64,000 nt of DNA from an uncultured Candidatus Saccharibacteria bacterium (lineage in GTDB: Bacteria; Patescibacteriota; Minisyncoccia; UBA11713; 2-01-FULL-45-33), in contig CAYXFX010000002.1 of assembly GCA_964464405.1 (NCBI GenBank), forward strand, positions 44,027-108,026, given 5' to 3'. The translations under genes and the position numbers were made by a program. The notes under the pieces are model-generated. The model did no database searches. It was not told the origin of the DNA and saw only the letters and a list, made by a program, of their open reading frames with translations. Positions 7,899 to 46,080 of the stretch are shown piece by piece (within the stretch, counting starts at the first letter, position 1; the number at the start of each line of letters is the position of its first letter).

Positions 7899-8617
7899 TG
7901 GTTAATTTTTATTTGTAATAACTCCTTCGCAGAACTTACTATGTCCGAAAGTACTCTCACTCGAGAATCATCATCATGCGCCCAGCTTACGGGCATCTGC
8001 CGAATTGGAATTTGTTTAAGACGTGCAATATATAAAAGCTCCGTATCAAAAGCCCATCTGTTAATCCGCGCCCTGGGAAATATTTTTACCGTTGCTTCTT
8101 TTGAAAAGCACTTAAATCCGCATGTAAAATCGGGGATCCCTGGAACAAAAAGGTTAGAGAGCTTGCTAAACCCTTGTCCTAAAAAAATTCTTAAAAAAGA
8201 TTCGCTTCTTTGTACTTTAGATCCACTAAGTCTCCGGCTTCCGATAATAATTTGGTCAGAAGGCTCCATAAGTAATTTTAATTGTTCAAATTCCGAAAGC
8301 GGAGTTGCTAAATCAATATCAAAAAAAATGACCCAGTCACTCGATGCGGCCAAAGCTCCCTGCCTTACAGCGTACCCCTTTCCGGTGTTTTTTTTGTATT
8401 CTACTATCTTAAACCCATACTTTGACTTGTAGTTTTCTAAAATCTTTTGCGTATCGTCACGAGATCCGTCATTTACAAAAATAATTTCCGTTCGCTCCGG
8501 AACTTTAGAAAAAAACTCGCAGATGCTGTCTATATTTTTCGGGATCCTTTTTTCTTCATTATAAACGGGAATTACAATAGAAAAAGAATGGGGCATTTTA
8601 AAAAAAATATTTCGCAA
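7877..8617 (-). CDS. Family 2 glycosyltransferase (polyprenyl-phosphate sugar synthase-like, DPM1/GtrB/ArnC type)
   Basis: FSIVIPVYNEE...EIIFVNDGSRDDT...DIDLATP. The likely true start is the internal Met (MPHSF..). Confidence 0.85.
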   Translation of the reverse strand: MRNIFFKMPHSFSIVIPVYNEEKRIPKNIDSICEFFSKVPERTEIIFVNDGSRDDTQKILENYKSKYGFKIVEYKKNTGKGYAVRQGALAASSDWVIFFDIDLATPLSEFEQLKLLMEPSDQIIIGSRRLSGSKVQRSESFLRIFLGQGFSKLSNLFVPGIPDFTCGFKCFSKEATVKIFPRARINRWAFDTELLYIARLKQIPIRQMPVSWAHDDDSRVRVLSDIVSSAKELLQIKINHWRGLYY

Positions 8618-9644
8618 ATTTTAATATTCCCTGTTTCCAAGGTACTCGGTGAGATACACCACTTATATCGCCGAACTTATTTTTATTTTCAAGATACCAT
8701 TCAAAATTTCTCACAAGCGCATCTTTATTTGAATATTTAGGGGTATACCCCAAAATACTCTCCGCTTTCTCTATAGAAACAAAGGAGTCTTTCCCGGCAG
8801 TTTCGTATACCCACTTGTAAAGCGGCGAAAGATGAAGTATTTCTAAAAATCGCAAAGTCCAAATCATAGGAGCTGCAGGCAACCCTATGATTTTTTTTCC
8901 GAAACCGGCATGATCCAAAACCGCTTGATAATCTTCGCGCATAGTTAAGAAGTTCCTTGCGCCAATATTAAAAGTATCGTTCACTTTTTCTTCTGGCAAT
9001 GTAAGCGTGAGCCAAATAGCTTCGCACAAATCTTCGACGTCCAGCAACTGATATTTATTTTTTCCGTTGCCTATCATAGGGAAACCACAACCTGTACTTG
9101 CCCAATCATAAAATAAAGCAAATACCCCCAAACGTTCTGGGCCTATAAAAGATTTTGGACGCAAAATAGGAACAATAGCTCCTTTTTTTCTTGCTTCTTT
9201 ACAAAGCTCTTCTGCCAAAATTTTTGCTTCGCCGTATGGTCCCACCCCTTGCAATTTATCGGTTTCATATATCGGGTGATGGTCGGGAATCCCATAAACA
9301 GCCGTGCTTGATATATGTACGATGCGCGGAATTTTATTTTTTATAACGGCGTCTAAAATATTTTTTGTGCCGTTAACTTCCGTTGAAAAAATATCTTCTT
9401 TGCTATAAAGTGGAAGCGCTGCTGCGGTATGCACTACCGCATAAACATTGTGAGTTGCTTCTTCGACATCTTTTACATTTCGTACATCTCCCGTAATGCA
9501 CTTAACTTGATTTTTTTCTAAGTAATCAAAAGGCGCGATATCCAAAGACACAACCTCGCATCCTTTTTTTAATAAAAAGCGCGCGAGGTTAATTCCTAAA
9601 AATCCAGCTCCACCGGTAATTAATATTTTTTTATCGCCATCCAT
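8598..9644 (-). CDS. NAD-dependent epimerase/dehydratase (SDR)
   Basis: KILITGGAGFLGINLARFL plus a YGEAK catalytic motif; 348 aa. Confidence 0.85.
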   Translation of the reverse strand: MDGDKKILITGGAGFLGINLARFLLKKGCEVVSLDIAPFDYLEKNQVKCITGDVRNVKDVEEATHNVYAVVHTAAALPLYSKEDIFSTEVNGTKNILDAVIKNKIPRIVHISSTAVYGIPDHHPIYETDKLQGVGPYGEAKILAEELCKEARKKGAIVPILRPKSFIGPERLGVFALFYDWASTGCGFPMIGNGKNKYQLLDVEDLCEAIWLTLTLPEEKVNDTFNIGARNFLTMREDYQAVLDHAGFGKKIIGLPAAPMIWTLRFLEILHLSPLYKWVYETAGKDSFVSIEKAESILGYTPKYSNKDALVRNFEWYLENKNKFGDISGVSHRVPWKQGILKFAKYFF

Positions 9645-10045
9645 AATTTATAAGCTATATTATCAATCAAATAAGTTATTTTTACAAACAAAGGTTCTCT
9701 TCCAGAGATTTTTCTTCGCACCATCATAAAATCAGAGCCTATATTTTTAGCAAACAGCCCGTCCGTCAAAAATTTATCTCCTATTACAATCGTATTTTTA
9801 CTTTTTATTTCTAAATTTCCCAAAGCCGATCTCCACGGTTTTCTTTTGTTGCTTCCTTTGTTACTTAATATGTGGACCTCATTATTCCTTTTTAATTCCT
9901 CTATCTTATGTAAAACTACTTTGCTTATGTCTTTGTCTCCATCCGGGCGCAGGGTGCCATCAACGTCTAAAATGATACACGCTCCAGAAATCGCGCCGAT
10001 TTCCTCAAAAAATTGCGGGTTTTCTCTTTTTTCACTACCCAGCAT
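9620..10045 (-). CDS. HAD-superfamily subfamily IIIA (YqeG-type) phosphatase
   Basis: ILDVDGTL motif I, ILSNKGS motif II, and KRKP...VIGDKFLTDG motifs III and IV; 141 aa. Confidence 0.65.
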   Translation of the reverse strand: MLGSEKRENPQFFEEIGAISGACIILDVDGTLRPDGDKDISKVVLHKIEELKRNNEVHILSNKGSNKRKPWRSALGNLEIKSKNTIVIGDKFLTDGLFAKNIGSDFMMVRRKISGREPLFVKITYLIDNIAYKLWMAIKKY

Positions 10046-10901
10046 AAAGTATAATTCCAGCAGAAACTATTAGCCAAATAAAAACAGTCACGAGCAGATG
10101 CTTATCAAAAAGCAAATCGTCAGTTGGACCGTCGTCTATTGTTTCTTTTACACTGATTAAAAATAAATATCTAAATAGTCCGTAAAGAACAATTGGAATA
10201 GTGACCATGAGAAGTTTGCTATGTTCTGAACTAAATGTATAAAACGCGTAAGTTATTATAGTTGAAGGAAGAACAATCATATTCATCTGGTCAAGCAACT
10301 GTGGGGAATATTGATTTAACCCAGTGCGAGTTAAGCTGTTTTGAGGATACGCAAGCTCGTTTTTCCTTTTAGAAATTCCCAAAAAAAGCGTGAGAAAAAA
10401 AGTAGACAAAATCAGCCATTGAGAAAAAGTGACTCCGATCGCAACCGCTCCAGCAATTACGCGTATTAAAAATCCAGCAGCAACAACAATTACATCGATA
10501 ATAACCACGCGCTTTAAATAAAAAGAATAAAGAATATTCAGTAATATATAATTTGCAATAAGCATTGCAAAATATGGATTAATAAAAAGTGAATTACCCA
10601 AAGAGAGTACGATTAGAAGCGCTGCGACAAGCCAAGCGGTATTTTGACTAAGTTTGCCAGAAGCGATCGGGCGGCTCCTTTTTTTAGGATGATTTCTATC
10701 CTGTTCAAAATCAAGCAAGTCATTAACTAAATAAACGGCGCTTGCAGCCAAACAAAAAAGAATGAAAGCAAAAACAACCGTCAAAAGTTTCGAAAAATCT
10801 GTAAATTCTTTTACAAAAATTATCGCAGCAAAAAGAAAAAGATTTTTAATCCATTGCTTGGGACGCATTGAGATAAACAAATTTTTTACGATTTCCTTCA
10901 T
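10035..10901 (-). CDS. UbiA-family prenyltransferase resembling decaprenyl-phosphate phosphoribosyltransferase (DPPR synthase)
   Basis: Multi-TM, 288 aa, with the motif LVNDLLDFEQDRNHPKKRSRPIASGKLS (N/DxxD...D plus the basic patch characteristic of 5-phosphoribosyl-1-pyrophosphate:polyprenyl-P transferases). Confidence 0.75.
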   Translation of the reverse strand: MKEIVKNLFISMRPKQWIKNLFLFAAIIFVKEFTDFSKLLTVVFAFILFCLAASAVYLVNDLLDFEQDRNHPKKRSRPIASGKLSQNTAWLVAALLIVLSLGNSLFINPYFAMLIANYILLNILYSFYLKRVVIIDVIVVAAGFLIRVIAGAVAIGVTFSQWLILSTFFLTLFLGISKRKNELAYPQNSLTRTGLNQYSPQLLDQMNMIVLPSTIITYAFYTFSSEHSKLLMVTIPIVLYGLFRYLFLISVKETIDDGPTDDLLFDKHLLVTVFIWLIVSAGIILYAG

Positions 10902-10962: not shown

Positions 10963-11697
10963 CTAGCTTAACCACTTCTCAAAATCGGAAAGAAATTGGT
11001 TTACGACTTCTTCGGTTTTAAAGTGATTTATCATATCGGGAAAATATTTTGGAGGGACTGTTACAATGTGCGCCCCTGCGAGCCTTGCATCCCGCACGTC
11101 AATCACTCCTCGCATGCTTCCTGCAATAATTTCTGCCGGAATCTTGTCTTGGTCAAAAATTCTGCGAGTCGCTTGTACAACTTTATAAGGGTTGAAGTCA
11201 TTTTTATCTAGCGCGCGTCTATTTTTTGCCTCGTCCCGTTCTTTGGACATTTTTTCATCTAGGCCCCCGTCCCGAATTCTTCCCCAAAAAAGACTGACAT
11301 ATTTTGCTCCGGCACGCGCCGCCATAACTGCTTGCGTAACATTCATGCAGGCCGTGCAATTTACAGAAATTCCTGCCTTGCTTAATTTTTTTATGGTTTC
11401 TAATTCATCCCATCCGACCTGAACTTTAATGCTCATCTGAGGATAGTTAAAATGGTTCATCATGTGGTGTGCTTGTTCAATTATCGTTTTTGGATCCCTC
11501 GAAAACACTTCAACACTAAGATGAATGCCGGGCTGATACTTATTTATAAGTTCTATAATTTTGCCGATATGCTTCGCAAGTGAAGATTTCGGCTCTTTTG
11601 CTAAAAGAGAAGGATTCGTTGTAATCCCGTGCGCAAAACCGCGCCTTAACGCTTCCTCAATGTCAACTAAGTTTGCCGTATCAATAAATATTTTCAT
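10963..11697 (-). CDS. Transaldolase / fructose-6-phosphate aldolase family (TalC/Fsa-like)
   Basis: MKIFIDTANLVDIEEA...GITTNPSLL, with a Schiff-base lysine region and TIM-barrel pattern; 244 aa. Confidence 0.8.
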   Translation of the reverse strand: MKIFIDTANLVDIEEALRRGFAHGITTNPSLLAKEPKSSLAKHIGKIIELINKYQPGIHLSVEVFSRDPKTIIEQAHHMMNHFNYPQMSIKVQVGWDELETIKKLSKAGISVNCTACMNVTQAVMAARAGAKYVSLFWGRIRDGGLDEKMSKERDEAKNRRALDKNDFNPYKVVQATRRIFDQDKIPAEIIAGSMRGVIDVRDARLAGAHIVTVPPKYFPDMINHFKTEEVVNQFLSDFEKWLS

Positions 11698-11733
11698 GCA
11701 ATTTTATATTATCAAATAAATTTTAAAAGACTA

Positions 11734-12300
11734 CTAAGAAGTTTGTATAATTTTTTTTATTAATTCTGTAGCTTCCGGCAAATCAGAAACATGGTAATCT
11801 GCTTCGACGCCCAAATTTTGTTCACCATTAATCAAAATTGTGCTGACTCCCGCAGACTTTCCTGCTTCAATGTCGCTTCCGCTATCGCCCACGATAAAAG
11901 AACCTTTAAGATCGATCCCCCATTTATTTGCCGCGGAAAGCAACATTCCTGGTTTAGGTTTTTTGCAATCGCATCCGTCATTTCTTCCGTGAATACAGAC
12001 ATAAACGTCGTCGAAAGGAAGTTTTCCAATATCTTTCATTATTAAATTGTGATCTTCTTGGGAAAGAAGTCCGTATGTCAGATCCGGCTGGTTAGTTACC
12101 AAAATTTTTAGAAATCCCAGACCGCCCAATTTGCTTAATTCGTCGTTCACACCAGATTTTATTCTAAATTCCTGATAGCTCCAGGGGGCCGTCCACCTTA
12201 CTTTCTTGCCAAGAACTTCGCAATTTTCTCCGCGATCAACAACTTCATTAATTACTCCATCTCTGTCCAAAAAAACCGCTCTTTTTTTTAAAGGTAACAT
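11734..12300 (-). CDS. gmhB: D-glycero-D-manno-heptose 1,7-bisphosphate phosphatase (HAD, GmhB)
   Basis: VFLDRDGVIN motif I, the zinc-binding C-x-H-x(6)-C-x-C motif (CIHGRNDGCDCKKPKPGM), and GDSGSD motif IV. Confidence 0.8.
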   Translation of the reverse strand: MLPLKKRAVFLDRDGVINEVVDRGENCEVLGKKVRWTAPWSYQEFRIKSGVNDELSKLGGLGFLKILVTNQPDLTYGLLSQEDHNLIMKDIGKLPFDDVYVCIHGRNDGCDCKKPKPGMLLSAANKWGIDLKGSFIVGDSGSDIEAGKSAGVSTILINGEQNLGVEADYHVSDLPEATELIKKIIQTS

Positions 12301-12305
12301 GTTAC

Positions 12306-12926
12306 TTAAATTATCTGCGGCGTCTTATGAATTCCCTCCCACTTGCCTTCGATCATTTTTAATTTGGGATGAAAAACCATACTATGCCACAAAACCGCCT
12401 GCCACGACTCCGCATGCGCCGTTACATTTTCGTGGTTTACTACAGGTACCAAAATGCAGGCATCCGCGACTCGCGCTGTGTGCCCGCCGTCTCTTGAAAC
12501 AATTCCTACCACCCTTGCTCCCATTTCCTTTGCGTGGTCTAGGGCATGCACAATATTTGTGCTCACTTTTTTTTCGGCATTTCCACCGCCTACTGAAAAA
12601 ACCATGACTACATCTTTTGGACCGATATTATTTCTTTCAAGCCATCTTACAAAAACAGAATCCCACCCGTCGTCATTCACACGAGCTGTTAATTCCGCGA
12701 CGTTATCTGTCGGCGTATAAGATTCTATATGCGCGATTTTTCTAAAATCGTTTACCGCATGAGAGGCGTTCGCAGCTGACCCCCCTACGCCAACTATAAA
12801 AAGTCTGCCTTTGTTATCTCTTGCGTTCCTTAGGATATCTACCGTCTTGTGAATCGCGCTTTTATCTACCTTTTTCGTAATTTCCGCGACTTCGTTTAAG
12901 TAGTTATCTATATAGTCGTTTTCCAT
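12306..12926 (-). CDS. gmhA: Sedoheptulose-7-phosphate isomerase (SIS domain, GmhA)
   Basis: RLFIVGVGGSAANASHAVNDF SIS motif; 206 aa; immediately adjacent to gmhB. Confidence 0.85.
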   Translation of the reverse strand: MENDYIDNYLNEVAEITKKVDKSAIHKTVDILRNARDNKGRLFIVGVGGSAANASHAVNDFRKIAHIESYTPTDNVAELTARVNDDGWDSVFVRWLERNNIGPKDVVMVFSVGGGNAEKKVSTNIVHALDHAKEMGARVVGIVSRDGGHTARVADACILVPVVNHENVTAHAESWQAVLWHSMVFHPKLKMIEGKWEGIHKTPQII

Positions 12927-12959
12927 GGTTTACTTTTATATAACAGAGCGCGCTTTCAT

Positions 12960-14783
12960 CTAGTTACTCTTTACTTTATATAGATATATGTTGCCTTCGC
13001 TAGTTAAAAGAGCCAGATTTCCCAAAATTGGGCTTAAATCCCATTCGGGACTTTTATTTTTATCCCAAACAATAAAATTTACTTCATTTCGTTTTAAAAT
13101 TTCAGCCATACCATTCGGATTTGCGGCTTTTTTATAATTATCGAACAGATAGTTTATCGTTTCCTCGCGGCTTTTTACAATCTTGGGGTCTTTTAATCTT
13201 ACACGTATATTATATTGATCGAAATCGACTCCGGATCTAAAGCCAGCAATATAACTATAAATCAAAGGATAATAGCTGTTTTCACCAGTAGTTCCGACAA
13301 GGCCGAACCCCTCATCAATTTTGCGCATTTGTTCCACAAAATTATTTCTTGAGTTTCTGTCCATGTAAGCATAAAAAAAGAGTGCATCTTCTAAACGCTT
13401 GTAAGGGGTATTAAATACAAATGCATTATTGCCCCAAAATAAATCGTGGCCAGTATAAACCGAAAAGAATCTCCCGTAATAATGTTCGGAGGTTAAAACT
13501 ACGCCGGGTTTTTTTTCTTTTTTTAAATAATCAATAATTGGACGGTAATTCTGTCCGTATTCCTTTATTTCCCATGTGGCCATCATTCCCTGATACTGCT
13601 GGCGCGTAGCGGCAATAAAAGCGGCAACAATAATTATTCCTAAAATCCATTTGCCATATTTTTGCAGTAAAGCAGAAACCTGTTTTTGATAATTTGCAAA
13701 TTTCCACAAAAGATACGATCCTACAACGATTGAAGTTGGAATAGTAAAGTACCAGTAGTAGTGCATAATCTGGGGTACTTTTCCGGTAAGCACTTGTTGG
13801 TTGAGGGTTAACCAGCTTGCTAAAACTATTGATAGAAAAACCGGCCCGTATTTATTCCTCTTATTTAAAAGCAAAAAAAGTATTGATAAAAAAAGGACAG
13901 CAAAAGAAATTTTACTAAATGGCGCCGGGTTTCTATTTAACGTGATTCCGTAATACAAAATCTGCCTGCCTACTTCCGTTTTAGAAAATGTAAGAGTTTT
14001 ATAAATTGTAAATGATCCTATCATGAGCCCCGCAAAAAAAACTATAAACATCTTTTTAAAAAGTTCGTACTGTCGTAAAATTAAATACAAAAGAACTAAA
14101 CTTCCCGTAAACGCCAAAGCGAAAGTCCACGCGTATGGATAAACATAAAAAAGAACACCGAATAATACGCTGGGCAATATCCAATATTTTAATTCCGTCC
14201 TGTCTAAGCTTCTAACTAGTGCGTTAATATATAAAAACAAAATAAGAAGGCCGTAAACAGGCATAATTGGCCTGCTAAAAATATTTAGGCCTGGAACTAC
14301 GGCCGTAACAGGCGCGTGCGAAAGTTTTACCAATGTATATCCGCCCACTGTAAATAGCGCAACGGATACGGAAAGTAATTTATTTTCCGAAAAAGAATAA
14401 ATTAAAAAATAAATGGATAAAACCAAAAGAAAAACGCCCAAAAAAGAATAAAAAGTGTAAATCGAAGTAATATTTTCTTTTGCAAATTCCACAAAACCCG
14501 AAAATTTAAACGGGGACAAAAGCACATACTCCAAATAAACCTGGTGGGGATCTGAAGACGAGTCTTTGCCGATTTTTAAAAAAATATTTCCCAAAGAATT
14601 GCCTTCCAAAATCTCTCTTCCTTTAACAATATAATAAGCATCGTCCACCCATTCGCCGATATTTACGCCTCTATAAACATTTCCCGCCAAAATAGGAAAA
14701 ATCAGTGCTGGAGAAATAACAACTAACGACATAAGTATCGCCGTAACAATTGCAAAGTTATGAATTTTTAGGAAACCAAACAA
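12960..14783 (-). CDS. Large polytopic membrane protein, paralog C
   Basis: 607 aa with the same motif set as paralogs A and B (AGNVYRGVNIGEWVDDAYYIVKGREILEGNSLGN; FYVYPYAWTF; YTGHDLFW; MAEILKRNEVNFIVWDK). Confidence 0.8.
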   Translation of the reverse strand: MFGFLKIHNFAIVTAILMSLVVISPALIFPILAGNVYRGVNIGEWVDDAYYIVKGREILEGNSLGNIFLKIGKDSSSDPHQVYLEYVLLSPFKFSGFVEFAKENITSIYTFYSFLGVFLLVLSIYFLIYSFSENKLLSVSVALFTVGGYTLVKLSHAPVTAVVPGLNIFSRPIMPVYGLLILFLYINALVRSLDRTELKYWILPSVLFGVLFYVYPYAWTFALAFTGSLVLLYLILRQYELFKKMFIVFFAGLMIGSFTIYKTLTFSKTEVGRQILYYGITLNRNPAPFSKISFAVLFLSILFLLLNKRNKYGPVFLSIVLASWLTLNQQVLTGKVPQIMHYYWYFTIPTSIVVGSYLLWKFANYQKQVSALLQKYGKWILGIIIVAAFIAATRQQYQGMMATWEIKEYGQNYRPIIDYLKKEKKPGVVLTSEHYYGRFFSVYTGHDLFWGNNAFVFNTPYKRLEDALFFYAYMDRNSRNNFVEQMRKIDEGFGLVGTTGENSYYPLIYSYIAGFRSGVDFDQYNIRVRLKDPKIVKSREETINYLFDNYKKAANPNGMAEILKRNEVNFIVWDKNKSPEWDLSPILGNLALLTSEGNIYLYKVKSN

Positions 14784-14787
14784 TTAA

Positions 14788-15774
14788 TTAAAAATCGAGT
14801 TTTTTAACACGCGCTCCCTGCTCATCAATCCAAAAATTAACCTCGCGAAGCATAAATGGCCGAAGTGTAGCTCTCACAGACTCTTTTATTTGTTCGGTGG
14901 GACAGTAAAATAAGAAATATCCTCCGCCTCCAGCACCGATAATTTTTCCTCCCAATGCTCCAGCTTTTTTTGCCGCATCATAAATATCGTCAAATCTCTT
15001 ATTGGACATCTGTTGAGACATCGCCTTTTTTATCTTCCAGTGATTATCCATCAAAGATCCGAAGCGATCTAGATCCTCTTTCAAAAATGAGTCATAAACC
15101 GCAAGCCCAATTTTTTTTGTTTCATGTTTTAACTCCAAAACTTTTTCTTTGTCCTGCGCCGCAAGAATTGGACTGCTTTCGCGGCTTACTCCAGTGTAAA
15201 AAAGGAGCGAGTTTTTTAGAAATTTATCCGTCGTTTCTTTTTTTATTTCGGGTTTTGTAATTTTCACTTTTCCATCCTGCGTAATATCAAACACAGCAAA
15301 CCCCCCGACGGCGCATGCGTACGGATCCTGCTTTCCATCGGGAAGTCCTAAATTTTGAGTAATCTCAAAAGATTTTTCCGCAGCTTCTATATTGCTCATT
15401 TCGTTTCCTTTGTACGCGGAAAGCCCCTTAAGAAGCGCCACTATGCAGGCGCCAGAAGATCCCAAACCGGTGCCAGCGGGAGTATCAGCTTTAAAGGAAA
15501 TCGCCACTCCTCTCTTAATTCCAGTCATTTTTAAAGATTCGCGCGCAAGTTCATGATGAATATCGTCAATCGAAGGGACTGCTTCAAAATTTTTATAATG
15601 CACATGTATCAAGTCGTCAGAACGCGTTTGTTTAATAAGCACATCCATATACATATTAATGGCCGCGCTAAAAATAAATCCTCCGTATTTTTGATAGTAC
15701 GAAGGCATATCAGTCGAGCCGCCTCCCAACGGAATCCTAAACGGCACCCGGCTTAAAATTAGTGATGAATTCAT
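14788..15774 (-). CDS. hddA: GHMP-family sugar kinase; D-glycero-α-D-manno-heptose-7-phosphate kinase (HddA-like)
   Basis: GHMP motif DTPAGTGLGSSGACIVAL; 328 aa; lies between gmhA and the other heptose-pathway genes. Confidence 0.75.
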   Translation of the reverse strand: MNSSLILSRVPFRIPLGGGSTDMPSYYQKYGGFIFSAAINMYMDVLIKQTRSDDLIHVHYKNFEAVPSIDDIHHELARESLKMTGIKRGVAISFKADTPAGTGLGSSGACIVALLKGLSAYKGNEMSNIEAAEKSFEITQNLGLPDGKQDPYACAVGGFAVFDITQDGKVKITKPEIKKETTDKFLKNSLLFYTGVSRESSPILAAQDKEKVLELKHETKKIGLAVYDSFLKEDLDRFGSLMDNHWKIKKAMSQQMSNKRFDDIYDAAKKAGALGGKIIGAGGGGYFLFYCPTEQIKESVRATLRPFMLREVNFWIDEQGARVKKLDF

Positions 15775-15828
15775 ATTTTATATAACTATTTATTTATAAT
15801 AAATGTTTTTTGGTCAAAAACGCAAATA

Positions 15829-15856
15829 TTGACAAAACTTGGGGTGGCGCTATATT
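15829..15856 (+). promoter_or_regulatory. Sigma70-like promoter for the plus-strand Nudix gene
   Basis: TTGACA (15829-15834), a 16-nt spacer, TATATT (15851-15856), then the RBS AAGGAG at 15876-15881 and ATG at 15888. Confidence 0.5.
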
Positions 15857-15887
15857 TATGCAAGAAAAATACTTAAAGGAGTACTAA

Positions 15888-16454
15888 ATGGGCATCGCAA
15901 CCGAGCGTGAAATTGTGGTTCGTGAAGTTTTGCACGAAGACAAGTGGGTTTATGCTAAACAAGTTGATGTAAACTTGAACAATGGGAAAGAAATAAAAAA
16001 CTTTCTCATGATTGAAACGAAATCCGGTGGTTTTATATCGGTATGCGCCAGAATGGAGGATGGAAAATTCCTTTTTGTTAGGCAATGCAAGCCGGCAGCC
16101 GGGCTCAGCATAGAATCTGTTGCTGGCGGAAAAAATCCTGAAGAAACATGGCCGGAAGCGGCACTGCGCGAGATGGTTGAAGAAAGCAAACATGAACCGG
16201 GAAAAATTGTAGAAATAGGCAACCATGATATTGGAATTTTTACGCAAACTGATCGTATTATCAATCCGGTACGTCTATTTCTCGCGTTCGACTGTAAAAT
16301 GAGTGAGGAAAAATTAAAAGGAGACGAAATACAGGGAATCGAACACCTTTTTTTAACTCCCGAAGAAACGCTGGAATGTATAGCAACCGGAGAAATCAGA
16401 GATCTTCCTACAGTTACCGGAATTTTTGCTCATCTTTATTACGAAAAAAAATAG
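15888..16454 (+). CDS. NUDIX hydrolase (candidate nucleotide-sugar pyrophosphatase)
   Basis: Nudix box GGKNPEETWPEAALREMVEESK (Gx5Ex7REUxEExG). It is the only plus-strand gene in the heptose cluster and has its own promoter and terminator. Confidence 0.8.
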   Translation: MGIATEREIVVREVLHEDKWVYAKQVDVNLNNGKEIKNFLMIETKSGGFISVCARMEDGKFLFVRQCKPAAGLSIESVAGGKNPEETWPEAALREMVEESKHEPGKIVEIGNHDIGIFTQTDRIINPVRLFLAFDCKMSEEKLKGDEIQGIEHLFLTPEETLECIATGEIRDLPTVTGIFAHLYYEKK

Positions 16455-16475
16455 CCGCGTTTTGCGGCTTTTTTG
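16455..16475. terminator. Bidirectional rho-independent terminator
   Basis: Hairpin GCCGC-GTTTT-GCGGC followed by TTTTTT on the plus strand and by a T-run on the minus strand, between convergent genes. Confidence 0.6.
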
Positions 16476-17132
16476 TTAGCTAGAAAGATAATCAACTACC
16501 TCAAGATACTGTTTTTGAGTGATGGGGCTTGAAGTCTCAACTTTGATATGCGAGTATTTTTCAATTTCTGGAGGAACGGGCGGTTGCTCTTCTAAATGCT
16601 TTTTCCATTCCTCATCAGAAGAAAGTTTTACTTTATCGTGCTCCGCAGCCCTTTCAATGACTCTTTTCCTTATAATCTCGGGGTCGGCATGTGCCAAAAT
16701 TATTTTTAATTTAAAGGAACCTTCGCGCCACCACGCAAAGTCGGTAAGCTGGGGTGCTAGAACTTTTTCGATATATCCGAATCTTACTTCTTTGATATAG
16801 TTGCCTTCCAAAATCGGATGCTTTCCCATCGGCAAAAGCTGTTTTGCCATCATCAGCATCAAATGATAGCTTTGATACCGAACGTGATCTCCATAATAAG
16901 TGTTGCTTGGATCATCTCTCGGAACCAAATCCCCGATTAAATATTGTGAGTGGCCAACTCCTTGAACCTTTTTGGGTGTCCATAGTAGTGCATAATTGAT
17001 CAAATCCTTTTCAATAAAAACAGAATTTGTCAAAGCTTTTGCCAACGGGTTAAGCAACGTACTTTTCCCGCTCCCGGAAATTCCCGCTCCCAAAATCAGG
17101 GTGGGATTAGGCAAAGAAAATTTAAAGTTCAT
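16476..17132 (-). CDS. P-loop NTPase / predicted kinase (AAA_33 or zeta-toxin-like fold)
   Basis: Walker A ILGAGISGSGKSTLL; 218 aa; no other family signature recognised. Confidence 0.55.
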   Translation of the reverse strand: MNFKFSLPNPTLILGAGISGSGKSTLLNPLAKALTNSVFIEKDLINYALLWTPKKVQGVGHSQYLIGDLVPRDDPSNTYYGDHVRYQSYHLMLMMAKQLLPMGKHPILEGNYIKEVRFGYIEKVLAPQLTDFAWWREGSFKLKIILAHADPEIIRKRVIERAAEHDKVKLSSDEEWKKHLEEQPPVPPEIEKYSHIKVETSSPITQKQYLEVVDYLSS

Positions 17133-18036
17133 GCTTTCCTCCTTTGATTAATTGCATCACTTCCTGATGCAATTGTTTATTTGCAAAAACCAAATCCTTG
17201 CAATTACTTAGAGACCATTTTTCTCCGTCCAAACTTGTTACTCTCCCGCCGGCTTCCTCAACCAATAAACAGCCTGGTAAGTTGTCCCACGGCTTGTTGC
17301 CGAGCGAGATTAAAACATCAGCAGACACATTTGAATTCCCTCCAGATGCGATTTTAACAACAGCACAAGAAGAAGATAACGACTGTCTATTCCTTACGGT
17401 TTTTCCTACAACTTCCAACACAAAGTTATTCTTTCCACGTCTGCTTGCACCTTCCAACAAAACAACGGCTTCCGATATCGAAGACACAGAAGAAACATGT
17501 AATCGTTCTAACCTCTGATTGGTATATCTCCAAGTTCCTTTTTTGCTTTCTGCAAAATAAAGCCCCGAAGAAAAAATTGGGTCATACTGCAAAAGAGATG
17601 CTTCTAGCACCGCCTCACACGGAAGAAAAATTACAGAAAAAACAACATGGCCGTCTATAACTTGGGCAATCATCGTGCCAAATAAAGGCAACCCCATCAA
17701 AAAGTTGTGTGTTCCATCCAAAGGATCTATTATCCAAAATGAATCAGTGATGGGAGGCCATGAATTTTGAATTTCTTCGCTCACAATACACTCGGCATTA
17801 AATTTACTGCGAAGATAGCCAATAATTCTTTCCTGCAATTCTTTGTCCAACTCACCAACAAGTTCGTTAGCTGCTTTTTTGGTAAATTGATTAACGGAAA
17901 ACAGTCGCTTAATGTAAAGCGGGAGCAAGTCGGTAAAAAATAAATTAAAATCCAAAGTTCTGGTCAATAACGAATACTCTAAATTGTCGTGGAACATATT
18001 CATTCTGCCACTCCTTTCTGGGAAGTAGGTTAGCAC
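17122..18036 (-). CDS. Inositol-monophosphatase-family phosphatase (IMPase/CysQ/SuhB-like)
   Basis: WIIDPLDGTHNF (the DPIDGT metal-binding motif); 304 aa. Confidence 0.8.
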   Translation of the reverse strand: MLTYFPERSGRMNMFHDNLEYSLLTRTLDFNLFFTDLLPLYIKRLFSVNQFTKKAANELVGELDKELQERIIGYLRSKFNAECIVSEEIQNSWPPITDSFWIIDPLDGTHNFLMGLPLFGTMIAQVIDGHVVFSVIFLPCEAVLEASLLQYDPIFSSGLYFAESKKGTWRYTNQRLERLHVSSVSSISEAVVLLEGASRRGKNNFVLEVVGKTVRNRQSLSSSCAVVKIASGGNSNVSADVLISLGNKPWDNLPGCLLVEEAGGRVTSLDGEKWSLSNCKDLVFANKQLHQEVMQLIKGGKHEL

Positions 18037-18046
18037 AAAAGAGTTT

Positions 18047-20047
18047 TTATTGCAACTCGCGCGTGGAAATTTGAGTTAAAACTTTCTTCGCCGCAGAAAC
18101 TGCGGTTAAAATCTTGCCGCTAAAAATTGAGTAGCAGCCGAATCCGTGCGAAACGACATCTGTTGGACGAGCATCCGTTTTTGCGGCAAATGTTTCCGTA
18201 GGAAGTATTACAAACATTGATTCAACATATTCGCAATCTTTCAAAACCGGAAACCACTTTAAACACCTCTCTTTCATTTTCAAAAAACGAGACTTTGGTA
18301 ATTTTTTAATTTCGTCCAAAGATAAACTTGTTTTGCCCTCAAAACTTTTATGCACGGATAAAGGAACGTCTCCTAACGTGTATAAATTTTTAGATTTCCC
18401 TACAGGAACAAGGGTCGCGAAAGGTCCGTCCATAATTGTAACAGCGCATTTATTTTTGGTACGCAACTTAACAACAGCGAGTTCTTTTAATCTGAAATTG
18501 AGTCTCTTTAAAGGAAAGCCGAGCCACAGGCAAAATTTATTATATCTCGCATATGTCGCGTTAATAATGTAGTCGAACTCTTTTTCCTTTTTTTTGCCGT
18601 TAGTAACCATTGAAAGAATTTTTTTTCCGTTCGCGTTAAGTTTTACAGACAATATTTCGGAATTCAAACTCATTTTTGTATTCCGGTTTTTTTTGAGTCG
18701 ATTTAGTATATATTTTTTTAAAATATTATAATCATAAACCGCTTCAGGGGTTAAAATGGAAAAATTTACAGTTTCTTTATTTAGAAATTCTTTTGGAGGA
18801 TATGCGTTTTTTTTCGGCAAATTGTTGTCCTTACAAACTTTCAAAAATTGGCCTTTTGTAACATTTGAGCCGTTTTTTGACACGCAATAAAAACTTGGGA
18901 AATCAGAGACTATTGAAGGGCCGTAAAAATTTTCAAAATCCTGCCTTTCCTCCTGAATTTCTTTTATTGTCTCTGGGCTTCTCGGATAATGGTATCCAAA
19001 ATGATGCCTATATTGATTAGCGCGCGTTGCTTCTTCAAAAATATTTTTATTTTTTTCAAACAACTCAACTTCGAATTTTTTTCCCAAAATTAAAGCTGTC
19101 GTTGTTCCAAAAATTCCTCCTCCGATAACGGCGATTTTCTGCTTTTTGGATAGAGCGCGGTTTGCGCTCTCTATAATTTCAATAATTCTTTTTCCAACTT
19201 TTCCGTCAGGATATTCCTTAACTACTCCGGAAACGGCGCCCAAAAACGCCTCAAGTTCCAGACGCAACGGTTCTTTTCTTTCAATAACTTTTTCTTTTTC
19301 TCTTCCGTTTTTCACTAAAATTATGGAGCTTTTTGCGTAGTCACAAACAACTTTTGACCCGTCCGATGAATTAAAGATGAGCTTTCTAATTTTATCTTTT
19401 CCCTTCCAGCCGATTTCTAAATTTGCGTCTACCCCGTTCAGATACCTCATTGAAACGTTTTTTAGGAAACTTGTGCCATTTGCCCAGATTTTTTCAGGAA
19501 ATCTTCCGAATAAAAAATCTAAAACATCAAAAAAATGGAGTTCTTCCAAGAAAGCTTCTTCGCCCTTGTGATAAGTTGCAATCGGGCTTGTAAACACGCC
19601 TTCCACGCTTAAAATTTTTGGAATTTTTCTAAGCATCATGTTAACTTTTTCAGTAGCGGGGTGGTATCTAAAAATATGCCCGACCATTAATATTTTTTTG
19701 TATTTTTGCGCTAAATCAATGAGTTCCTTTGCTTTTTTTGAGTTGTCTGCAATTGGTTTTTCAACAAAAACATGCGCGTACGAAAGGCTTTTTTTTACCA
19801 AATCAAAGTGGGTTTTGTAGGGCGTCACAATATCTACGCAGTCAACAGATTTTAATAAGTCAGGCTGCAACTTCAAAAATACTGGAACATTATATTTCTC
19901 CTTAATTTCTTTTTGAGATTCTTTTGTTTTCACAACAACTCCCTTAAGTTCAATTTTTTTGTCTTCAGCAAGAGCAAGAAGCACTCTTAGATGATTTTTC
20001 CCGAATCTTCCTGCACCAACTAATAAAATTTTCGGGAGCCGCTTCAT
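18047..20047 (-). CDS. Two-domain oxidoreductase: Gfo/Idh/MocA-like NAD(P)-binding domain fused to an FAD-dependent oxidoreductase (DAO-like) domain
   Basis: The N-terminus has KILLVGAGRFGKNHL...DIVTPYKTHFDLVKKSLSYAHVFVEKP (GFO_IDH_MocA). The middle has KIAVIGGGIFGTTTAL...ELFEKN (a FAD dinucleotide-binding GxGxxG motif). Single 666-aa ORF. Confidence 0.7.
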   Translation of the reverse strand: MKRLPKILLVGAGRFGKNHLRVLLALAEDKKIELKGVVVKTKESQKEIKEKYNVPVFLKLQPDLLKSVDCVDIVTPYKTHFDLVKKSLSYAHVFVEKPIADNSKKAKELIDLAQKYKKILMVGHIFRYHPATEKVNMMLRKIPKILSVEGVFTSPIATYHKGEEAFLEELHFFDVLDFLFGRFPEKIWANGTSFLKNVSMRYLNGVDANLEIGWKGKDKIRKLIFNSSDGSKVVCDYAKSSIILVKNGREKEKVIERKEPLRLELEAFLGAVSGVVKEYPDGKVGKRIIEIIESANRALSKKQKIAVIGGGIFGTTTALILGKKFEVELFEKNKNIFEEATRANQYRHHFGYHYPRSPETIKEIQEERQDFENFYGPSIVSDFPSFYCVSKNGSNVTKGQFLKVCKDNNLPKKNAYPPKEFLNKETVNFSILTPEAVYDYNILKKYILNRLKKNRNTKMSLNSEILSVKLNANGKKILSMVTNGKKKEKEFDYIINATYARYNKFCLWLGFPLKRLNFRLKELAVVKLRTKNKCAVTIMDGPFATLVPVGKSKNLYTLGDVPLSVHKSFEGKTSLSLDEIKKLPKSRFLKMKERCLKWFPVLKDCEYVESMFVILPTETFAAKTDARPTDVVSHGFGCYSIFSGKILTAVSAAKKVLTQISTRELQ

Positions 20048-20772
20048 ATATTTTCCGTGATATGCCCGATCAAATTTGGAGCATCTTTTTCAGGATAACG
20101 ATACGGTTTTTTGAATCTAGCAATAAATGCTATTTTTAGTAAACCGAATCCGCCCTTAATCATATTTGAAATCTTAATTTTGGATTCTCCCGCTTTCCTT
20201 TCGTTATGAGAAACCCAAACCTCGCAAACTTTAGCTCCACGAGCTCTTGCTATTGCGGGCAAAAAAACTTGAACTTGCCCCCAAAGTTCAAAATCTTTAA
20301 TAAATTTCGATTTATATGCTTTAAGTCCGCAACCAAAATCGTGAACGGTAACTCCTAATAAAATTCTGGAAATTAAATTTGCAATTTTTGAAAACAATAT
20401 TCTGGATGCCGGATCTTGGCGATTTTCTCTCCTTCCCACTACCGCGTCGCACCCCGAATCAATTTTCGTTAAGAGTTTAGGAATTTCCTCTGGTAAATTT
20501 TGCAAATCGGCATCAAGAAAAACAATGGCATCTCCTTTTGCTTCTTTTATTCCAACGTTTAGTGCTGGAGTCTGGCCAGAATTTTTCGCAAGAGTTATCA
20601 ACTTGAGAGGATTAAGTTCGCGTGCAACCATCTCGGTGTTATCATGCGATCCGTCGTTTACAAATATTATTTCGTAAGGACGGCCGTATTTTTCCATTAC
20701 GACTGTTATCCGCTGATGAAGTTCTTTTACTGTGCGCTCTTCATTATAAACAGGTACGACAATTGAAATCAT
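20044..20772 (-). CDS. Family 2 glycosyltransferase (polyprenyl-phosphate sugar synthase-like)
   Basis: ISIVVPVYNEE...EIIFVNDGSHDNT...FLDADLQN, with a C-terminal amphipathic/TM region. Confidence 0.85.
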   Translation of the reverse strand: MISIVVPVYNEERTVKELHQRITVVMEKYGRPYEIIFVNDGSHDNTEMVARELNPLKLITLAKNSGQTPALNVGIKEAKGDAIVFLDADLQNLPEEIPKLLTKIDSGCDAVVGRRENRQDPASRILFSKIANLISRILLGVTVHDFGCGLKAYKSKFIKDFELWGQVQVFLPAIARARGAKVCEVWVSHNERKAGESKIKISNMIKGGFGLLKIAFIARFKKPYRYPEKDAPNLIGHITENI

Positions 20773-20781
20773 ATTACTTAC

Positions 20782-21447
20782 TTATACTACCCTATTAATG
20801 TCTTCCGGCGAAGTAAAAGAAGGCCTGTTTTTTGCGATTACTGCCTTTACATTGTGTTCTTTTACAAATTTATTCATGAGCGACGTTAAATAATATTCAC
20901 CTGTCTCATGCTTTTCCGGAATGTAATTAAAAAGATCTGAATTTACAAGCATGAGCCCTCCTCCCCCCAAACTTGATTTCGGTTCCTGCGGCTTTTCTAC
21001 AATTTCAGTAATGAACCCTTCCGAAGACACCGTTACAATTCCGGAAGCCTTGGGATTTTCTACTTCCCAGCAAAGCCACGCAAATTCATTTTCAAGGCAT
21101 TTTTCAACATCGTTTTTTGAAATCAATTCGTCTGCATAAAAAATTAGAAATCTCTCCGCTTCGGTAAATAAATGCTTCGTAAGCAAAACGGCATTTCCGG
21201 TTCCCGAAAGCTCTTCTTGAACTATGTAGTGAATTTTTCTCCCTTTATAATTTTCTCCCAAGTATTCTTTGATTTTGTCGCCCATATAGCCGATGACGAG
21301 TATCGCTTCATTTATTTCTTCTGTAAGCGAATCAAAGATGTAGTCTAAAAAAGTTTTTTCGTTAAATTTTAAAAGCGGTTTAGGAACTTCATCCGTCAGA
21401 TGCCGCATTCTCTTTCCTCTACCTGCCGCCAGTATTATTGCCTTCAT
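20782..21447 (-). CDS. hddC: Sugar-1-phosphate nucleotidyltransferase; D-glycero-α-D-manno-heptose-1-phosphate guanylyltransferase (HddC-like)
   Basis: MKAIILAAGRGKRMRHLTDEVPKPLL NTP_transferase motif; 221 aa; clusters with gmhA, hddA and gmhB. Confidence 0.75.
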   Translation of the reverse strand: MKAIILAAGRGKRMRHLTDEVPKPLLKFNEKTFLDYIFDSLTEEINEAILVIGYMGDKIKEYLGENYKGRKIHYIVQEELSGTGNAVLLTKHLFTEAERFLIFYADELISKNDVEKCLENEFAWLCWEVENPKASGIVTVSSEGFITEIVEKPQEPKSSLGGGGLMLVNSDLFNYIPEKHETGEYYLTSLMNKFVKEHNVKAVIAKNRPSFTSPEDINRVV

Positions 21448-23677: not shown

Positions 23678-25111
23678 TTACCAATATGTATAAAACAAAA
23701 CCTGCATAAATATGATTTGAAAAAATAACATGGAAAGAACAGAAGAAAAGTCGTCATCGCTTAAAGTTCTCCCTGAATAAATAACCGGCAAAATAAAAAG
23801 CGGAGTTATAAATAGCCAAATCCGCTCAATTTCTCCTTGGAATATGCCGACTAATAGAAAAATTGCGAGCATAAAAAATCCGACTAAATAGGGCCATAAT
23901 TTTTCTCTAAATATATTCCTGACATTTTTTAAAATAAGATAAATATTGGCAAATCCCAAATAAATGCAAAAAGCCGCCAAGTTTATAAAAAAATAAATAA
24001 AATATATTCTAATTGATTCGAAGTTGCTGCTAACCGTTTCCGCGTTGGATTTATAAGAATCAAAAAAATCATTAATCACCGAATATCCTGCCCAAAGCTT
24101 AAGCGCTAAAAAAAATAAAATAAATCCCAAAGCCGCAAAAACAGCCCTTGCGAAAGTTTTAAAATTATTTTGCGAAAAATTAAAAAGTGCGTAAATAATA
24201 AGCAATAAATATAAAGGTGTGAGCAGCAAAAAAAGGAAATTTGAAAAAAGCGAAAACCCCGCTAGTACCCCTCCCGCGAAAGCCAAAATGAGATTTTTTT
24301 TAACGCCAAAGTAAATTAGCACAAACGCAATAAATGAGAAAAACAAAAACGTCGTTTCCATCGAAGTCGCGCTAAACATAAGGAAACTCGGAACAAGCGC
24401 GAAAATCTGAATTCCGCGCCTTGCTTCTGCTTCACTGGCAAATTCGCACAATAAATAGTAAAGTAGGAAAATAGTAAGACCCCCAAGCATTACAACTAAT
24501 AGGGATATGCCGGCTAAATTTGGCCAAGAAACTTTTTGAAAAGCGTAAAGTATTAAAGAATACCCGGGTGGGTGCCAACGGCTATGAAGCGCAAGCTGGA
24601 GTTTGAGATTCGAATAGTCTTTTATAAAATCCTGCGCGCTTGTAATAAGCGGCAAATTACCAGAATATTCCCAGCGAGTGCGGGTAAACGGTTCATAAAC
24701 GCCGTAAAATCCCTCGCGTATTGCCGCAATACTAACCGCAAGAAAAACAAATATTATATAAAGTGTAAGTAAAAATTTAAAAGTTGAAAAATTTTCTATC
24801 CGCTTCCTAAAATAAATAAATATTAAAAAAATAAAAAATGCGGCCGAAAACCAAAAATATCCCGATGTTTTAGGTGAGAAAATCGCATAAAAAATTAAAC
24901 GGTCGGGAATATAACCTTTGTAAAAAAAAGAAATAAAAGCTTTAAGTAAAGAAAAAAAAGAAACGAGTCCCAAAACCAAAAAAAATAAGCGCCGCGAAAA
25001 AACATTTTTCTTAAAATAAAAAAAATACCAAAAAGTAAATATGACGGAAAATATAAATAACGTAACAATTCCCCAAAAAGCAATTACGAGCTTCGGCCCT
25101 GAAATATCCAT
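23678..25111 (-). CDS. Polytopic membrane protein, probable GT-C-type (PMT_2/ArnT-like) glycosyltransferase
   Basis: 477 aa and very hydrophobic. The loop motif ..HSRWHPPGYSLILY.. resembles the KPPL motif of PMT_2/ArnT. It is paired with a divergent GT2 gene. Confidence 0.55.
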   Translation of the reverse strand: MDISGPKLVIAFWGIVTLFIFSVIFTFWYFFYFKKNVFSRRLFFLVLGLVSFFSLLKAFISFFYKGYIPDRLIFYAIFSPKTSGYFWFSAAFFIFLIFIYFRKRIENFSTFKFLLTLYIIFVFLAVSIAAIREGFYGVYEPFTRTRWEYSGNLPLITSAQDFIKDYSNLKLQLALHSRWHPPGYSLILYAFQKVSWPNLAGISLLVVMLGGLTIFLLYYLLCEFASEAEARRGIQIFALVPSFLMFSATSMETTFLFFSFIAFVLIYFGVKKNLILAFAGGVLAGFSLFSNFLFLLLTPLYLLLIIYALFNFSQNNFKTFARAVFAALGFILFFLALKLWAGYSVINDFFDSYKSNAETVSSNFESIRIYFIYFFINLAAFCIYLGFANIYLILKNVRNIFREKLWPYLVGFFMLAIFLLVGIFQGEIERIWLFITPLFILPVIYSGRTLSDDDFSSVLSMLFFQIIFMQVLFYTYW

Positions 25112-25817: not shown

Positions 25818-25853
25818 AAATATTATCTAAAAAAAGACTAGCGGAGTCTCAAA

Positions 25854-25895
25854 AAGCATTCCAACTTTACGCGATCGCGTAAAGTTGGAATGCTT
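25854..25895. repeat. 42-bp perfect palindrome with GCGATCGC (HIP1-like) core; bidirectional terminator-like
   Basis: AAGCATTCCAACTTTACGCGATCGCGTAAAGTTGGAATGCTT, followed by a T-run. It is intergenic between convergent or adjacent genes. The core CAACTTTACGCGATCGCGTAAAGTTG recurs at 63179-63202 and 63782-63807. Confidence 0.7.
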
Positions 25896-25981
25896 ATTTT
25901 TATTTTTTCTTTTTTCTGAAATTTACCACTTGGTGCGCTATAGCATGTTATGTTGCATTTTAAATATTTAGATCATTTCAT

Positions 25982-29617: not shown

Positions 29618-29659
29618 CTCTGGATTATAAAATAAATTTCAGATATAGTACAGATTATA

Positions 29660-45988: not shown

Positions 45989-46048
45989 ATATTTTCTCCT
46001 TAATTGGCAACCCCACACTAAATCTACTCTTATTATTACAGTCTGACA

Positions 46049-46080
46049 CAAAAAAGAAAACCTCGAAAGCATCGAGGTTT
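46049..46080 (-). terminator. Rho-independent terminator for 46079..46684
   Basis: Hairpin AACCTCG-aaagca-TCGAGGTT overlapping the stop codon, followed on the minus strand by TTCTTTTTT. Confidence 0.5.

Follow-up and report, generated by a model that had tools for sequence, protein, structure and literature searches.

Which sugar would be made by the gene cluster at positions 10963-21447 of a 64-kb stretch of DNA from an uncultured Candidatus Saccharibacteria bacterium, and where would this sugar be used? The whole stretch (contig CAYXFX010000002.1) is called the window here, and all coordinates are window positions. The original prediction had read six open reading frames (ORFs) of the cluster as a complete GDP-heptose pathway, namely GmhA, HddA, GmhB and HddC, along with a transaldolase and a Nudix hydrolase. 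The present analysis leads to a wider reading, which is given about an even chance of being right. The cluster would be a surface glycosylation module, widespread among Patescibacteria, in which a higher-carbon aldose is activated with a nucleoside diphosphate (NDP) by an HddA-type route, placed on a polyprenyl-phosphate carrier and displayed outside the membrane. The activated sugar would most likely be D-glycero-D-manno-heptose. As a whole, the cluster resembles a heptose pathway of the HddA type to which a lipid-carrier system like that of Arn has been added.

The conservation of the cluster was followed in related organisms. A one-genome-per-species scan yielded 80 loci of 21 kb each (numbered with an L), and the window proteins were compared with these by tblastn. 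The reference set consists of 32 Patescibacteria loci, each having a kinase of 49% or more identity to that of the window, and neighbours were counted within 10 kb. In 26 of these loci, a transaldolase gene adjoins that of the SIS or HAD protein; of the other six, five are truncated at a contig end. The sugar-1-phosphate nucleotidyltransferase (NTase) is likewise found in 26/32, the GT2 glycosyltransferase in 20 (43-63% identity) and a Gfo-FAD fusion protein in 14 (41-53% identity). The genes are usually arranged on one strand as NTase, B12-binding radical SAM protein, GT2, Gfo-FAD fusion, GmhB, kinase, SIS and transaldolase. Since the transaldolase and the NTase recur so often, mostly on one strand and in one order, the arrangement is not a matter of chance. 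The ~508-aa B12-binding radical SAM protein (CPFRCSFC), which lies between the NTase and the GT2 at L012:4865-6391 and also in L006, L011, L014-L017 and L020, is not present in the window. Where it does occur, its role may be C-methylation or another modification of the sugar.

The predicted enzymes of sugar activation

All six ORFs of the original prediction exist at the places, on the strands and in the superfamilies that it gave. Their Pfam matches are all above the gathering thresholds (TAL_FSA, HAD, SIS, GHMP kinase N and C, NUDIX and NTP_transferase), and each has a gene call in the public assembly GCA_016176325.1, in which this sequence is also found. The kinase (14788-15774, minus strand), with both GHMP domains of Pfam and its matches in the PDB, is placed by homology in the HddA/WcbL heptokinase clade of GHMP sugar-phosphate 1-kinases. 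Among heptokinases of known structure, it scores 146-149 bits with WcbL, 145 bits with the B. thetaiotaomicron enzyme and 118 bits with that of C. jejuni, as against 60 bits with fucokinase, 45 with mevalonate kinase and 30 with galactokinase. The HddA-type assignment proposed earlier is thus borne out (148 bits to heptokinases versus 30-45 bits for galactokinase and mevalonate kinase), and the grouping with the latter two, which would have spoken against it, was not seen. The protein carries the PxGxGLGSS motif, as TPAGTGLGSSGA in translation. Arg13 and Asp163 are the catalytic residues of WcbL (PMC4691232). In the family of the window kinase, Arg13 is kept without exception, as are Asp146 and Asp150 in all of the 14 relatives compared.

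HddA is also the top NCBIfam match of the kinase, at 145 bits against an equivalog cutoff of 600 (NF049969). This failure is uninformative, because the kinase of a canonical Firmicutes hddC-gmhB-gmhA-hddA cluster itself reaches only 166 bits on the same model. The use of NCBIfam equivalog cutoffs as a membership test was, therefore, dropped. Automated labels of these genes are unreliable, and the public labels of the kinase disagree with each other, being 'galactokinase' at NCBI and 'heptose-7-phosphate kinase' at JGI.

The second enzyme, with a Pfam HAD match (11734-12300, minus strand), has the motifs DRDGVIN, VTNQ, CxHx6CxCKKP and GDSGSD in its translation. These are the motifs of the GmhB/HisB-N group, and by them the protein is classed as a HAD-IIIA sugar-bisphosphate phosphatase of this type. 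It passes TIGR01656 (99 bits, cutoff 84) and TIGR01662, which are histidinol-phosphatase-domain and HAD-IIIA models, while the GmhB equivalogs are its best specific matches at 77-96 bits, below their cutoffs. The third, predicted to be a divergent GmhA-like ketose-phosphate isomerase (Pfam SIS_2; 12306-12926, minus strand), scores 60 bits on the gmhA model TIGR00441, the cutoff of which is 209. Every genuine PDB match of this SIS protein is a phosphoheptose isomerase, though weak (~39 bits). In GmhA, Glu65 and His180 are catalytic, and His61 and Gln172 form the metal site. The equivalents of His61 and His180 are kept, and Glu65 and Gln172 are replaced by Asp and Glu, respectively; the metal and catalytic positions would thus be chemically conserved. 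A second type of SIS protein, scoring 82-96 bits on the gmhA model, occurs in related clusters. No HldE-type protein, with a PfkB or cytidylyltransferase domain, was found among the window ORFs scanned, in keeping with the earlier claim of a route without HldE.

It can be argued at this point that no higher sugar is made at all. The SIS protein, kinase and phosphatase would then bypass phosphohexomutase and convert fructose-6-phosphate to hexose-1-phosphate for a UDP-hexose, the transaldolase being co-located by chance. In favour of this, no heptose-specific equivalog score reaches its cutoff, the SIS protein has diverged strongly (60 bits), the sugar pocket of WcbL has been seen with mannose bound (PMC4691232), and the closest relatives of the NTase use hexose-1-phosphates. 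However, the best matches of the three proteins are consistently heptose-specific families, and without a C7 or C8 ketose-phosphate as substrate it would be difficult to account for the close and recurrent linkage to transaldolases of three lineages. A route to a plain hexose is, on this evidence, very unlikely.

The preferred reading, of an HddA-type route to a higher sugar, departs from the original prediction at the NTase (20782-21447, minus strand). By its NCBIfam and PDB scores, this protein is of the ST0452/archaeal GlmU N-domain type. It reaches 157 bits with Arch_glmU, 120 with AglF, 94 with RmlA-long and 87 with HddC, the equivalog cutoff of HddC being 300 bits. In the PDB, it scores 80 bits with Sulfolobus ST0452 and 53 bits with the Yersinia HddC (YpHddC). 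EXXPLGTGGA is the motif that defines the HddC family; its Glu80 makes two hydrogen bonds to N1/N2 of guanine, and uridylyltransferases have Gln at this position (PMC6981941). In an ungapped alignment of the base-recognition site, the window NTase reads IVQEELSGTGNA and YpHddC reads IIENEPLGTGGA, with Gln at the Glu80 position. The motif of the family is absent, as Q-E-E-L-S-G-T-G-N-A stands in place of E-N-E-P-L-G-T-G-G-A. ST0452 likewise has Gln there. Where a related cluster combines the Gfo-FAD fusion with an NTase, the same residue is found in 12 of 13 cases. Among the loci compared, canonical Firmicutes clusters have Glu at this site and most Patescibacteria orthologues Gln. A subset of the Patescibacteria has a shorter loop with a nearby Glu, and L032 reads EPELLGTAGG, which resembles HddC.

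Judged from these comparisons, the NTase is not of the HddC type. The identification with HddC has to be given up, as the protein falls nearer to GlmU-like families (Arch_glmU 157 and AglF 120 against HddC 87 bits, with Gln at Glu80), the very grouping that the original prediction had named as contrary to its claim. What survives of the four-step heptose route is an HddA-type, non-HldE path to an activated higher sugar, and what is lost is its GDP and HddC labelling. The GmhA and especially the HddC labels are, by these scores, family-level resemblances rather than memberships. A UDP or dTDP carrier is considered more likely than GDP, because the NTase has Gln where HddC has its guanine-binding Glu. 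Furthermore, the characterised proteins closest to the NTase (ST0452), to the dehydrogenase domain of the fusion (GnnA, WlbA and KijD10) and to the GT2 (ArnC) all work on UDP- or dTDP-sugars.

A GDP-heptose route, as first proposed, with the NTase using GTP, is still to be weighed against this. The isomerase, kinase and phosphatase would fit it, and HddC is among the NTase matches (87 bits). Single-residue swaps failed to re-programme YpHddC, so the Gln does not exclude the use of GTP, some related Patescibacteria NTases do have the nearby Glu, and that of L032 has the HddC-like segment. On the other hand, the window NTase lacks Glu80 of the EXXPLGTGGA motif, shows less similarity to HddC than to RmlA-long, AglF, ST0452 or the GlmU N-domain, and is linked to a dehydrogenase and a GT2 that are nearest to UDP-/dTDP-sugar enzymes. 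GDP-heptose as the product is thus regarded as unlikely.

The superfamilies of the isomerase, GHMP 1-kinase and HAD 7-phosphatase, the clade of the kinase and the lack of HldE are shared with the canonical GDP-heptose pathway. The NTase, in contrast, is of another lineage without the guanine-binding Glu. In the Firmicutes loci L063, L064 and L074, the order is the canonical one of NTase, GmhB, SIS and kinase, and a transaldolase is absent within 10 kb, whereas it is a conserved member of the window-type clusters. In place of cytoplasmic heptosyltransferases, the window has a polyprenyl-phosphate GT2, a GT-C protein and a dehydrogenase-FAD fusion. Because the feature that defines HddC was tested for and is missing, the cluster is not a member of the canonical GDP-heptose system.

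Two architectures were observed among the Patescibacteria. One has the Gln-type NTase, the ArnC-like GT2 and the Gfo-FAD fusion (the window and L005-L024). The other has a short-loop NTase with the nearby Glu, tightly linked to the kinase, and is without the fusion (L022, L025, L026, L029, L030, L034 and L038). The nucleotide carrier may differ between the two.

The transaldolase and the carbon number of the sugar

The transaldolase (10963-11697, minus strand), a short-type protein of 244 aa with a TAL_FSA match of 142 bits, is most similar in the PDB to the transaldolases of B. subtilis and T. acidophilum (106-109 bits), with FSA at about 40-48 bits. When it is aligned to 3r8r and 3s0c, the catalytic Asp6 and Glu63, the Schiff-base Lys91 and the SLFWGR segment are seen to be present. 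The Phe of this segment is a transaldolase feature, as FSA has Tyr there. On TIGR00875, the protein scores 143 bits against a cutoff of 246, in part because a loop insertion of ~25 aa, located C-terminal to the GRIRDGG segment, splits the match. This insertion was considered as a marker of specificity and ruled out, since the close orthologues in L015 and L018 are without it and those in L031 and L033 have a longer one.

Across the related loci, three transaldolase lineages fill this slot of the operon. The alternatives to the window type are a plain TalC-type of 221-227 aa and a Staphylococcus-type that passes the TIGR02134 equivalog cutoff at 321 bits. The repeated recruitment of different lineages indicates that the need of the cluster is for ordinary, generic transaldolase chemistry, and a supply of sedoheptulose-7-phosphate, as suggested in the original prediction, fits this role. 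Neither a second transaldolase nor a transketolase is present in the 64-kb window. Patescibacteria are known to run carbon through a non-oxidative pentose-phosphate loop (PMC9166423). Because of their dependence on this loop, the supply of sedoheptulose-7-phosphate would be a sufficient reason for the linkage.

The conserved membership of the transaldolase in the cluster is thus supported. The original prediction had overlooked, however, that the same set of genes also matches the one known for GDP-octose. In lincomycin biosynthesis, LmbR transfers a C3 unit from fructose-6-phosphate or sedoheptulose-7-phosphate to ribose-5-phosphate, thus generating octulose-8-phosphate, and LmbN, LmbP, LmbK and LmbO, the homologues of GmhA, HddA, GmhB and HddC, lead on to GDP-octose (PMC5854111, PMC4351081). 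A similar transaldolase reaction in the window would yield an octose. The lincomycin/celesticetin set, compared here by composition and lengths, has the same five families at similar sizes (CcbR 222, CcbP 323 and CcbO 232 aa), including a dedicated transaldolase, followed by redox tailoring of the NDP-sugar. All five families are co-located in the window and are conserved together in related loci. A dedicated transaldolase is what sets Lmb apart from the canonical heptose clusters; it is conserved here and absent from L063, L064 and L074. Lmb also includes a Gfo/Idh/MocA-type oxidoreductase and tailoring by NDP-sugar dehydrogenase/epimerase enzymes, with analogues in the window.

Nevertheless, LmbR/CcbR, with 47% identity to an enzyme of Cellulomonas, is a short transaldolase of the ordinary kind, and no sequence signature of octulose formation is known. 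The three lineages in the slot suit a generic supply at least as well as they suit an octose route, and the supply of sedoheptulose-7-phosphate already explains the linkage, given the pentose-phosphate loop of the Patescibacteria. There are differences of setting as well. The actinomycete pathway serves an antibiotic, whereas the window has an envelope-glycan island with lipid-carrier enzymes; its NTase is probably no guanylyltransferase, and no aminotransferase or thiol-transfer enzymes accompany it. To our knowledge, octoses have so far been met in antibiotics and not in primary surface glycans. A lincomycin-type octose route is thus rated as improbable. As for the carbon number itself, seven is the probable one from these sequences, and eight is given a small share.

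The probable lipid carrier and the proposed route

The original prediction named six genes and overlooked three others of the same cluster, the ArnC-like GT2, the GT-C protein and the Gfo-FAD fusion, which indicate the destination of the sugar. The GT2 (20044-20772, minus strand) has ArnC (137 bits), DPMS (89) and GtrB (71) as its top PDB matches and ArnC as its top NCBIfam match (149 bits, under the equivalog cutoff of 529). By these scores, its GT-A catalytic domain is closest to the polyprenyl-phosphate glycosyltransferases.

The gene between those of the kinase and the isomerase (12960-14783, minus strand) encodes a membrane protein of 607 aa without a Pfam family. When its AlphaFold model (pLDDT 91.7) was searched against the PDB with Foldseek, the top 24 matches were all GT-C structures (STT3, PglB, AglB, AftA, DPY19, ArnT and Emb), with E down to 2e-7 and TM ~0.5. 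The model, with a multi-span N-terminal module and a periplasmic domain, thus predicts a GT-C fold. Compared profile to profile, the family and the window's PMT_2-type proteins showed no similarity (probability 3%), so it is on the predicted fold that the assignment rests. Asp47, in the first external loop, is near-invariant in the family, and one homologue carries a fused GT2 domain. The protein is one of three paralogous membrane proteins of ~580-607 aa (37% identity, without Pfam families), all on the minus strand, at 3783-5543, 5500-7224 and 12960-14783.

The fusion protein (18047-20047, minus strand; 666 aa; Pfam GFO_IDH_MocA and DAO) combines a GnnA/WlbA-like NDP-sugar 3-dehydrogenase of the Gfo/Idh/MocA type with a DAO-type FAD oxidoreductase. 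In its AlphaFold model (pLDDT 93), the N-terminal domain matches the UDP-GlcNAc 3-dehydrogenase GnnA (TM 0.88, rmsd 2.2 A), WlbA and the TDP-sugar 3-ketoreductase KijD10, and the C-terminal domain matches glycine oxidase and GlpD. The fold, the EKP motif and the His/Asp residues are shared with GnnA and WlbA (WbpB). Unlike these, the window enzyme is fused to an FAD domain and has no partner aminotransferase in its operon. There are 305 homologues of the fusion at E below 1e-20, and it is widespread in Patescibacteria.

Together, the GT2, the GT-C protein and the fusion point to an Arn-like scheme, with tailoring of the NDP-sugar in the cytoplasm, loading on a lipid carrier, flipping and transfer by the GT-C enzyme. 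The pairing of an ArnC-like GT2 with GT-C transferases, the upstream NDP-sugar tailoring and the two-compartment logic are shared with the Arn system of L-Ara4N lipid A modification (ArnC-ArnT) and with the related GtrB-GtrC and DPMS-PMT systems. The window would differ from Arn-type systems in having a heptose or octose as the donor sugar, and its GT-C protein belongs to a family that lacks annotation and does not resemble, by profile, the ArnT/PMT_2-type proteins of the window. We know of no description of a heptose or octose on polyprenyl monophosphate.

The proposed route, of which all eight steps are inferred from homology and synteny, would run as follows. The transaldolase would form sedoheptulose-7-phosphate from fructose-6-phosphate and erythrose-4-phosphate, and the GmhA-like isomerase would convert this to heptose-7-phosphate. 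The HddA-clade kinase would then phosphorylate O1 to give the alpha-1,7-bisphosphate, from which the GmhB-like phosphatase would take off the 7-phosphate. In the fifth step, the ST0452/GlmU-type NTase would activate the heptose-1-phosphate, UDP- or dTDP-heptose being likelier than GDP-heptose. The GnnA-like dehydrogenase-FAD fusion would tailor the NDP-sugar, probably with oxidation at C3 first. Further, the ArnC-like GT2 would move the sugar onto polyprenyl phosphate and, after flipping, the GT-C enzyme would join it to an acceptor in the envelope. The Nudix enzyme encoded divergently from the kinase probably hydrolyses an NDP-sugar of the pathway, thus trimming the donor pool.

Several points weigh against this route. 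Not one of the pathway enzymes reaches an NCBIfam equivalog cutoff. A terminator and a gene on the opposite strand split the minus-strand genes into two predicted transcription units. The transaldolase may be the sole pentose-phosphate transaldolase of the organism, encoded here by chance. As CcbR is an ordinary transaldolase of 222 aa, no sequence signature separates the C7 from the C8 reading, and the two products are indistinguishable from these sequences. The nucleotide used is poorly predicted from a single residue: the E80Q variant of YpHddC lost its preference for GTP without gaining pyrimidine use (PMC6981941), so the Gln is a lean towards UDP/dTDP and not a proof. When the FAD domain alone was compared with the PDB by sequence, nothing was found below E = 0.17. 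Lastly, it is only synteny that ties the GT2 and the GT-C protein to the pathway sugar. A bolder version of the route can also be stated, in which there is no GDP-heptose and an octose, or at least a pyrimidine-nucleotide alpha-heptose, is oxidised by the NAD/FAD fusion and displayed through polyprenyl phosphate and a new GT-C family. In this full form, it is considered rather unlikely.

The Nudix gene and the surrounding island

The Nudix hydrolase (15888-16454, plus strand; Pfam NUDIX) is of the ADP-ribose/NDP-sugar pyrophosphatase type. Its best PDB match is the ADP-ribose pyrophosphatase of T. thermophilus (41 bits). With the enzymes of this group (T. thermophilus Ndx4, NudE, NudF and NudK), it shares the Nudix fold and an intact catalytic core, the REx2EE of the Nudix box. 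A proline located C-terminal to the Nudix box is a marker of ADP-ribose specificity; in the alignment, this proline of the Thermus enzyme is not conserved in the window protein. The original prediction had likened the gene to gmm, which lies in colanic-acid clusters. No detectable relationship to Gmm/NudD was found, the sole NCBIfam match being NudE at 19 bits. Because the protein is related to ADP-ribose pyrophosphatases and not to Gmm/NudD, the comparison with colanic acid is positional only. The association with the cluster itself holds good, as orthologues with 44-53% identity are inside or beside it in six related loci, within the operon in L015 and L018 and adjoining the NTase in L006 and L010. 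From these positions, a role of the Nudix enzyme on a sugar nucleotide of the pathway is plausible.

The Nudix gene was also predicted to have its own promoter, and this is in agreement with what was found upstream of it. It is divergent from the kinase gene and is preceded by a promoter-like site (TTGACA-16-TATATT; 15829-15856, plus strand), a consensus match only, which with 11/12 matches is the best sigma-70-like site in the 10.9-kb region. AAGGAG is present 6 nt 5' of its ATG. A hairpin at 16453-16469, with a GC-rich stem and T runs on both strands, would act as a bidirectional terminator between the convergent Nudix and AAA_33 genes, and would also end the unit of NTase, GT2, fusion, inositol-monophosphatase-family and AAA_33 genes. 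The last two of these separate the Gfo-FAD fusion from the terminator. They encode a P-loop kinase (AAA_33 32 bits; 16476-17132, minus strand), orthologues of which adjoin a GmhB-like gene in L024 and L033, and a phosphatase (Inositol_P 126 bits; 17122-18036, minus strand), for which the NCBIfam equivalogs are all below cutoff and no conservation was seen in related loci.

The cluster is part of one large glycan-biosynthesis island, which extends from base 1 to ~40,800. Immediately downstream of the transaldolase gene, 10035-10901 (minus strand) encodes a UbiA-family protein that passes two decaprenyl-phosphate phosphoribosyltransferase equivalog cutoffs (256 bits vs 234 and 226 vs 207). Its gene is followed by those of a small HAD-IIIA phosphatase, an SDR epimerase/reductase and a GT2, in the region 7877-10901. 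This set looks like the mycobacterial route to polyprenyl-phosphate ribose/arabinose donors, and no conservation of these genes was seen beside the kinase in related loci. More pairs of GT2 and PMT_2-type GT-C proteins are present at 23678-32070, with PMT_2 proteins at 23678-25111, 25982-27613 and 29660-31270 and GT2s at 25041-25817, 28922-29617 and 31270-32070. Their presence suggests that multiple lipid-carrier glycosylation systems are gathered in one island. At 2144-3742 (minus strand), another fusion joins an incomplete nucleotide-sugar dehydrogenase, of which the N and central UDPG_MGDP_dh domains are present, to a methyltransferase domain of the class I SAM type. At the boundary of the island, adjoining SecDF, lies a secreted-looking protein with lamin-tail and PKD domains (40871-42415, minus strand), a possible acceptor of glycosylation or surface protein.

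The remainder of the window is housekeeping in nature (SecDF, RNR, ThyX, FtsZ/FtsA, HisRS, L11 and NusG), and no tRNA gene or Rfam match was found in the window. A second Nudix protein, unrelated to the first, is encoded beyond the island at 45461-46072 (minus strand). The region 47475-50371 includes a 559-aa ThyX protein, the best Thy1 match of which covers only residues 363-524, and a dCMP deaminase-thymidylate kinase fusion. Near the end of the window, a small protein with the Cas2-like central domain of PaaX is encoded at 63213-63770 (minus strand). Outside the Patescibacteria, individual genomes of Candidatus Poribacteria (chromosomes at L039-L080) were observed to have many paralogues of HddA-like kinases, with at least 5-6 loci per genome (33-39% identity), often beside a GT2 ~40% identical to the ArnC-like enzyme of the window.

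In the literature on heptose in Patescibacteria, only one passing KEGG-module statement was found, which mentions heptose genes of Paceibacteria under an ADP-heptose label (PMC9166423). The Patescibacteria, or Candidate Phyla Radiation, make up a large share of bacterial diversity, live attached to hosts and have a barely known surface chemistry. The cluster described here is conserved in many Paceibacteria lineages and thus offers a concrete route to a distinctive envelope sugar. If the proposed route is true, it would add a UDP- or dTDP-heptose of the alpha anomer, a heptose (or octose) donor for a GT-C transferase that is the first to be linked to polyprenyl phosphate, and a new family of bifunctional NAD/FAD sugar oxidoreductases. 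Should the bolder version of the route be the true one, it would represent a primary-metabolism octose or a lipid-linked higher-sugar pathway specific to the envelopes of the Patescibacteria.

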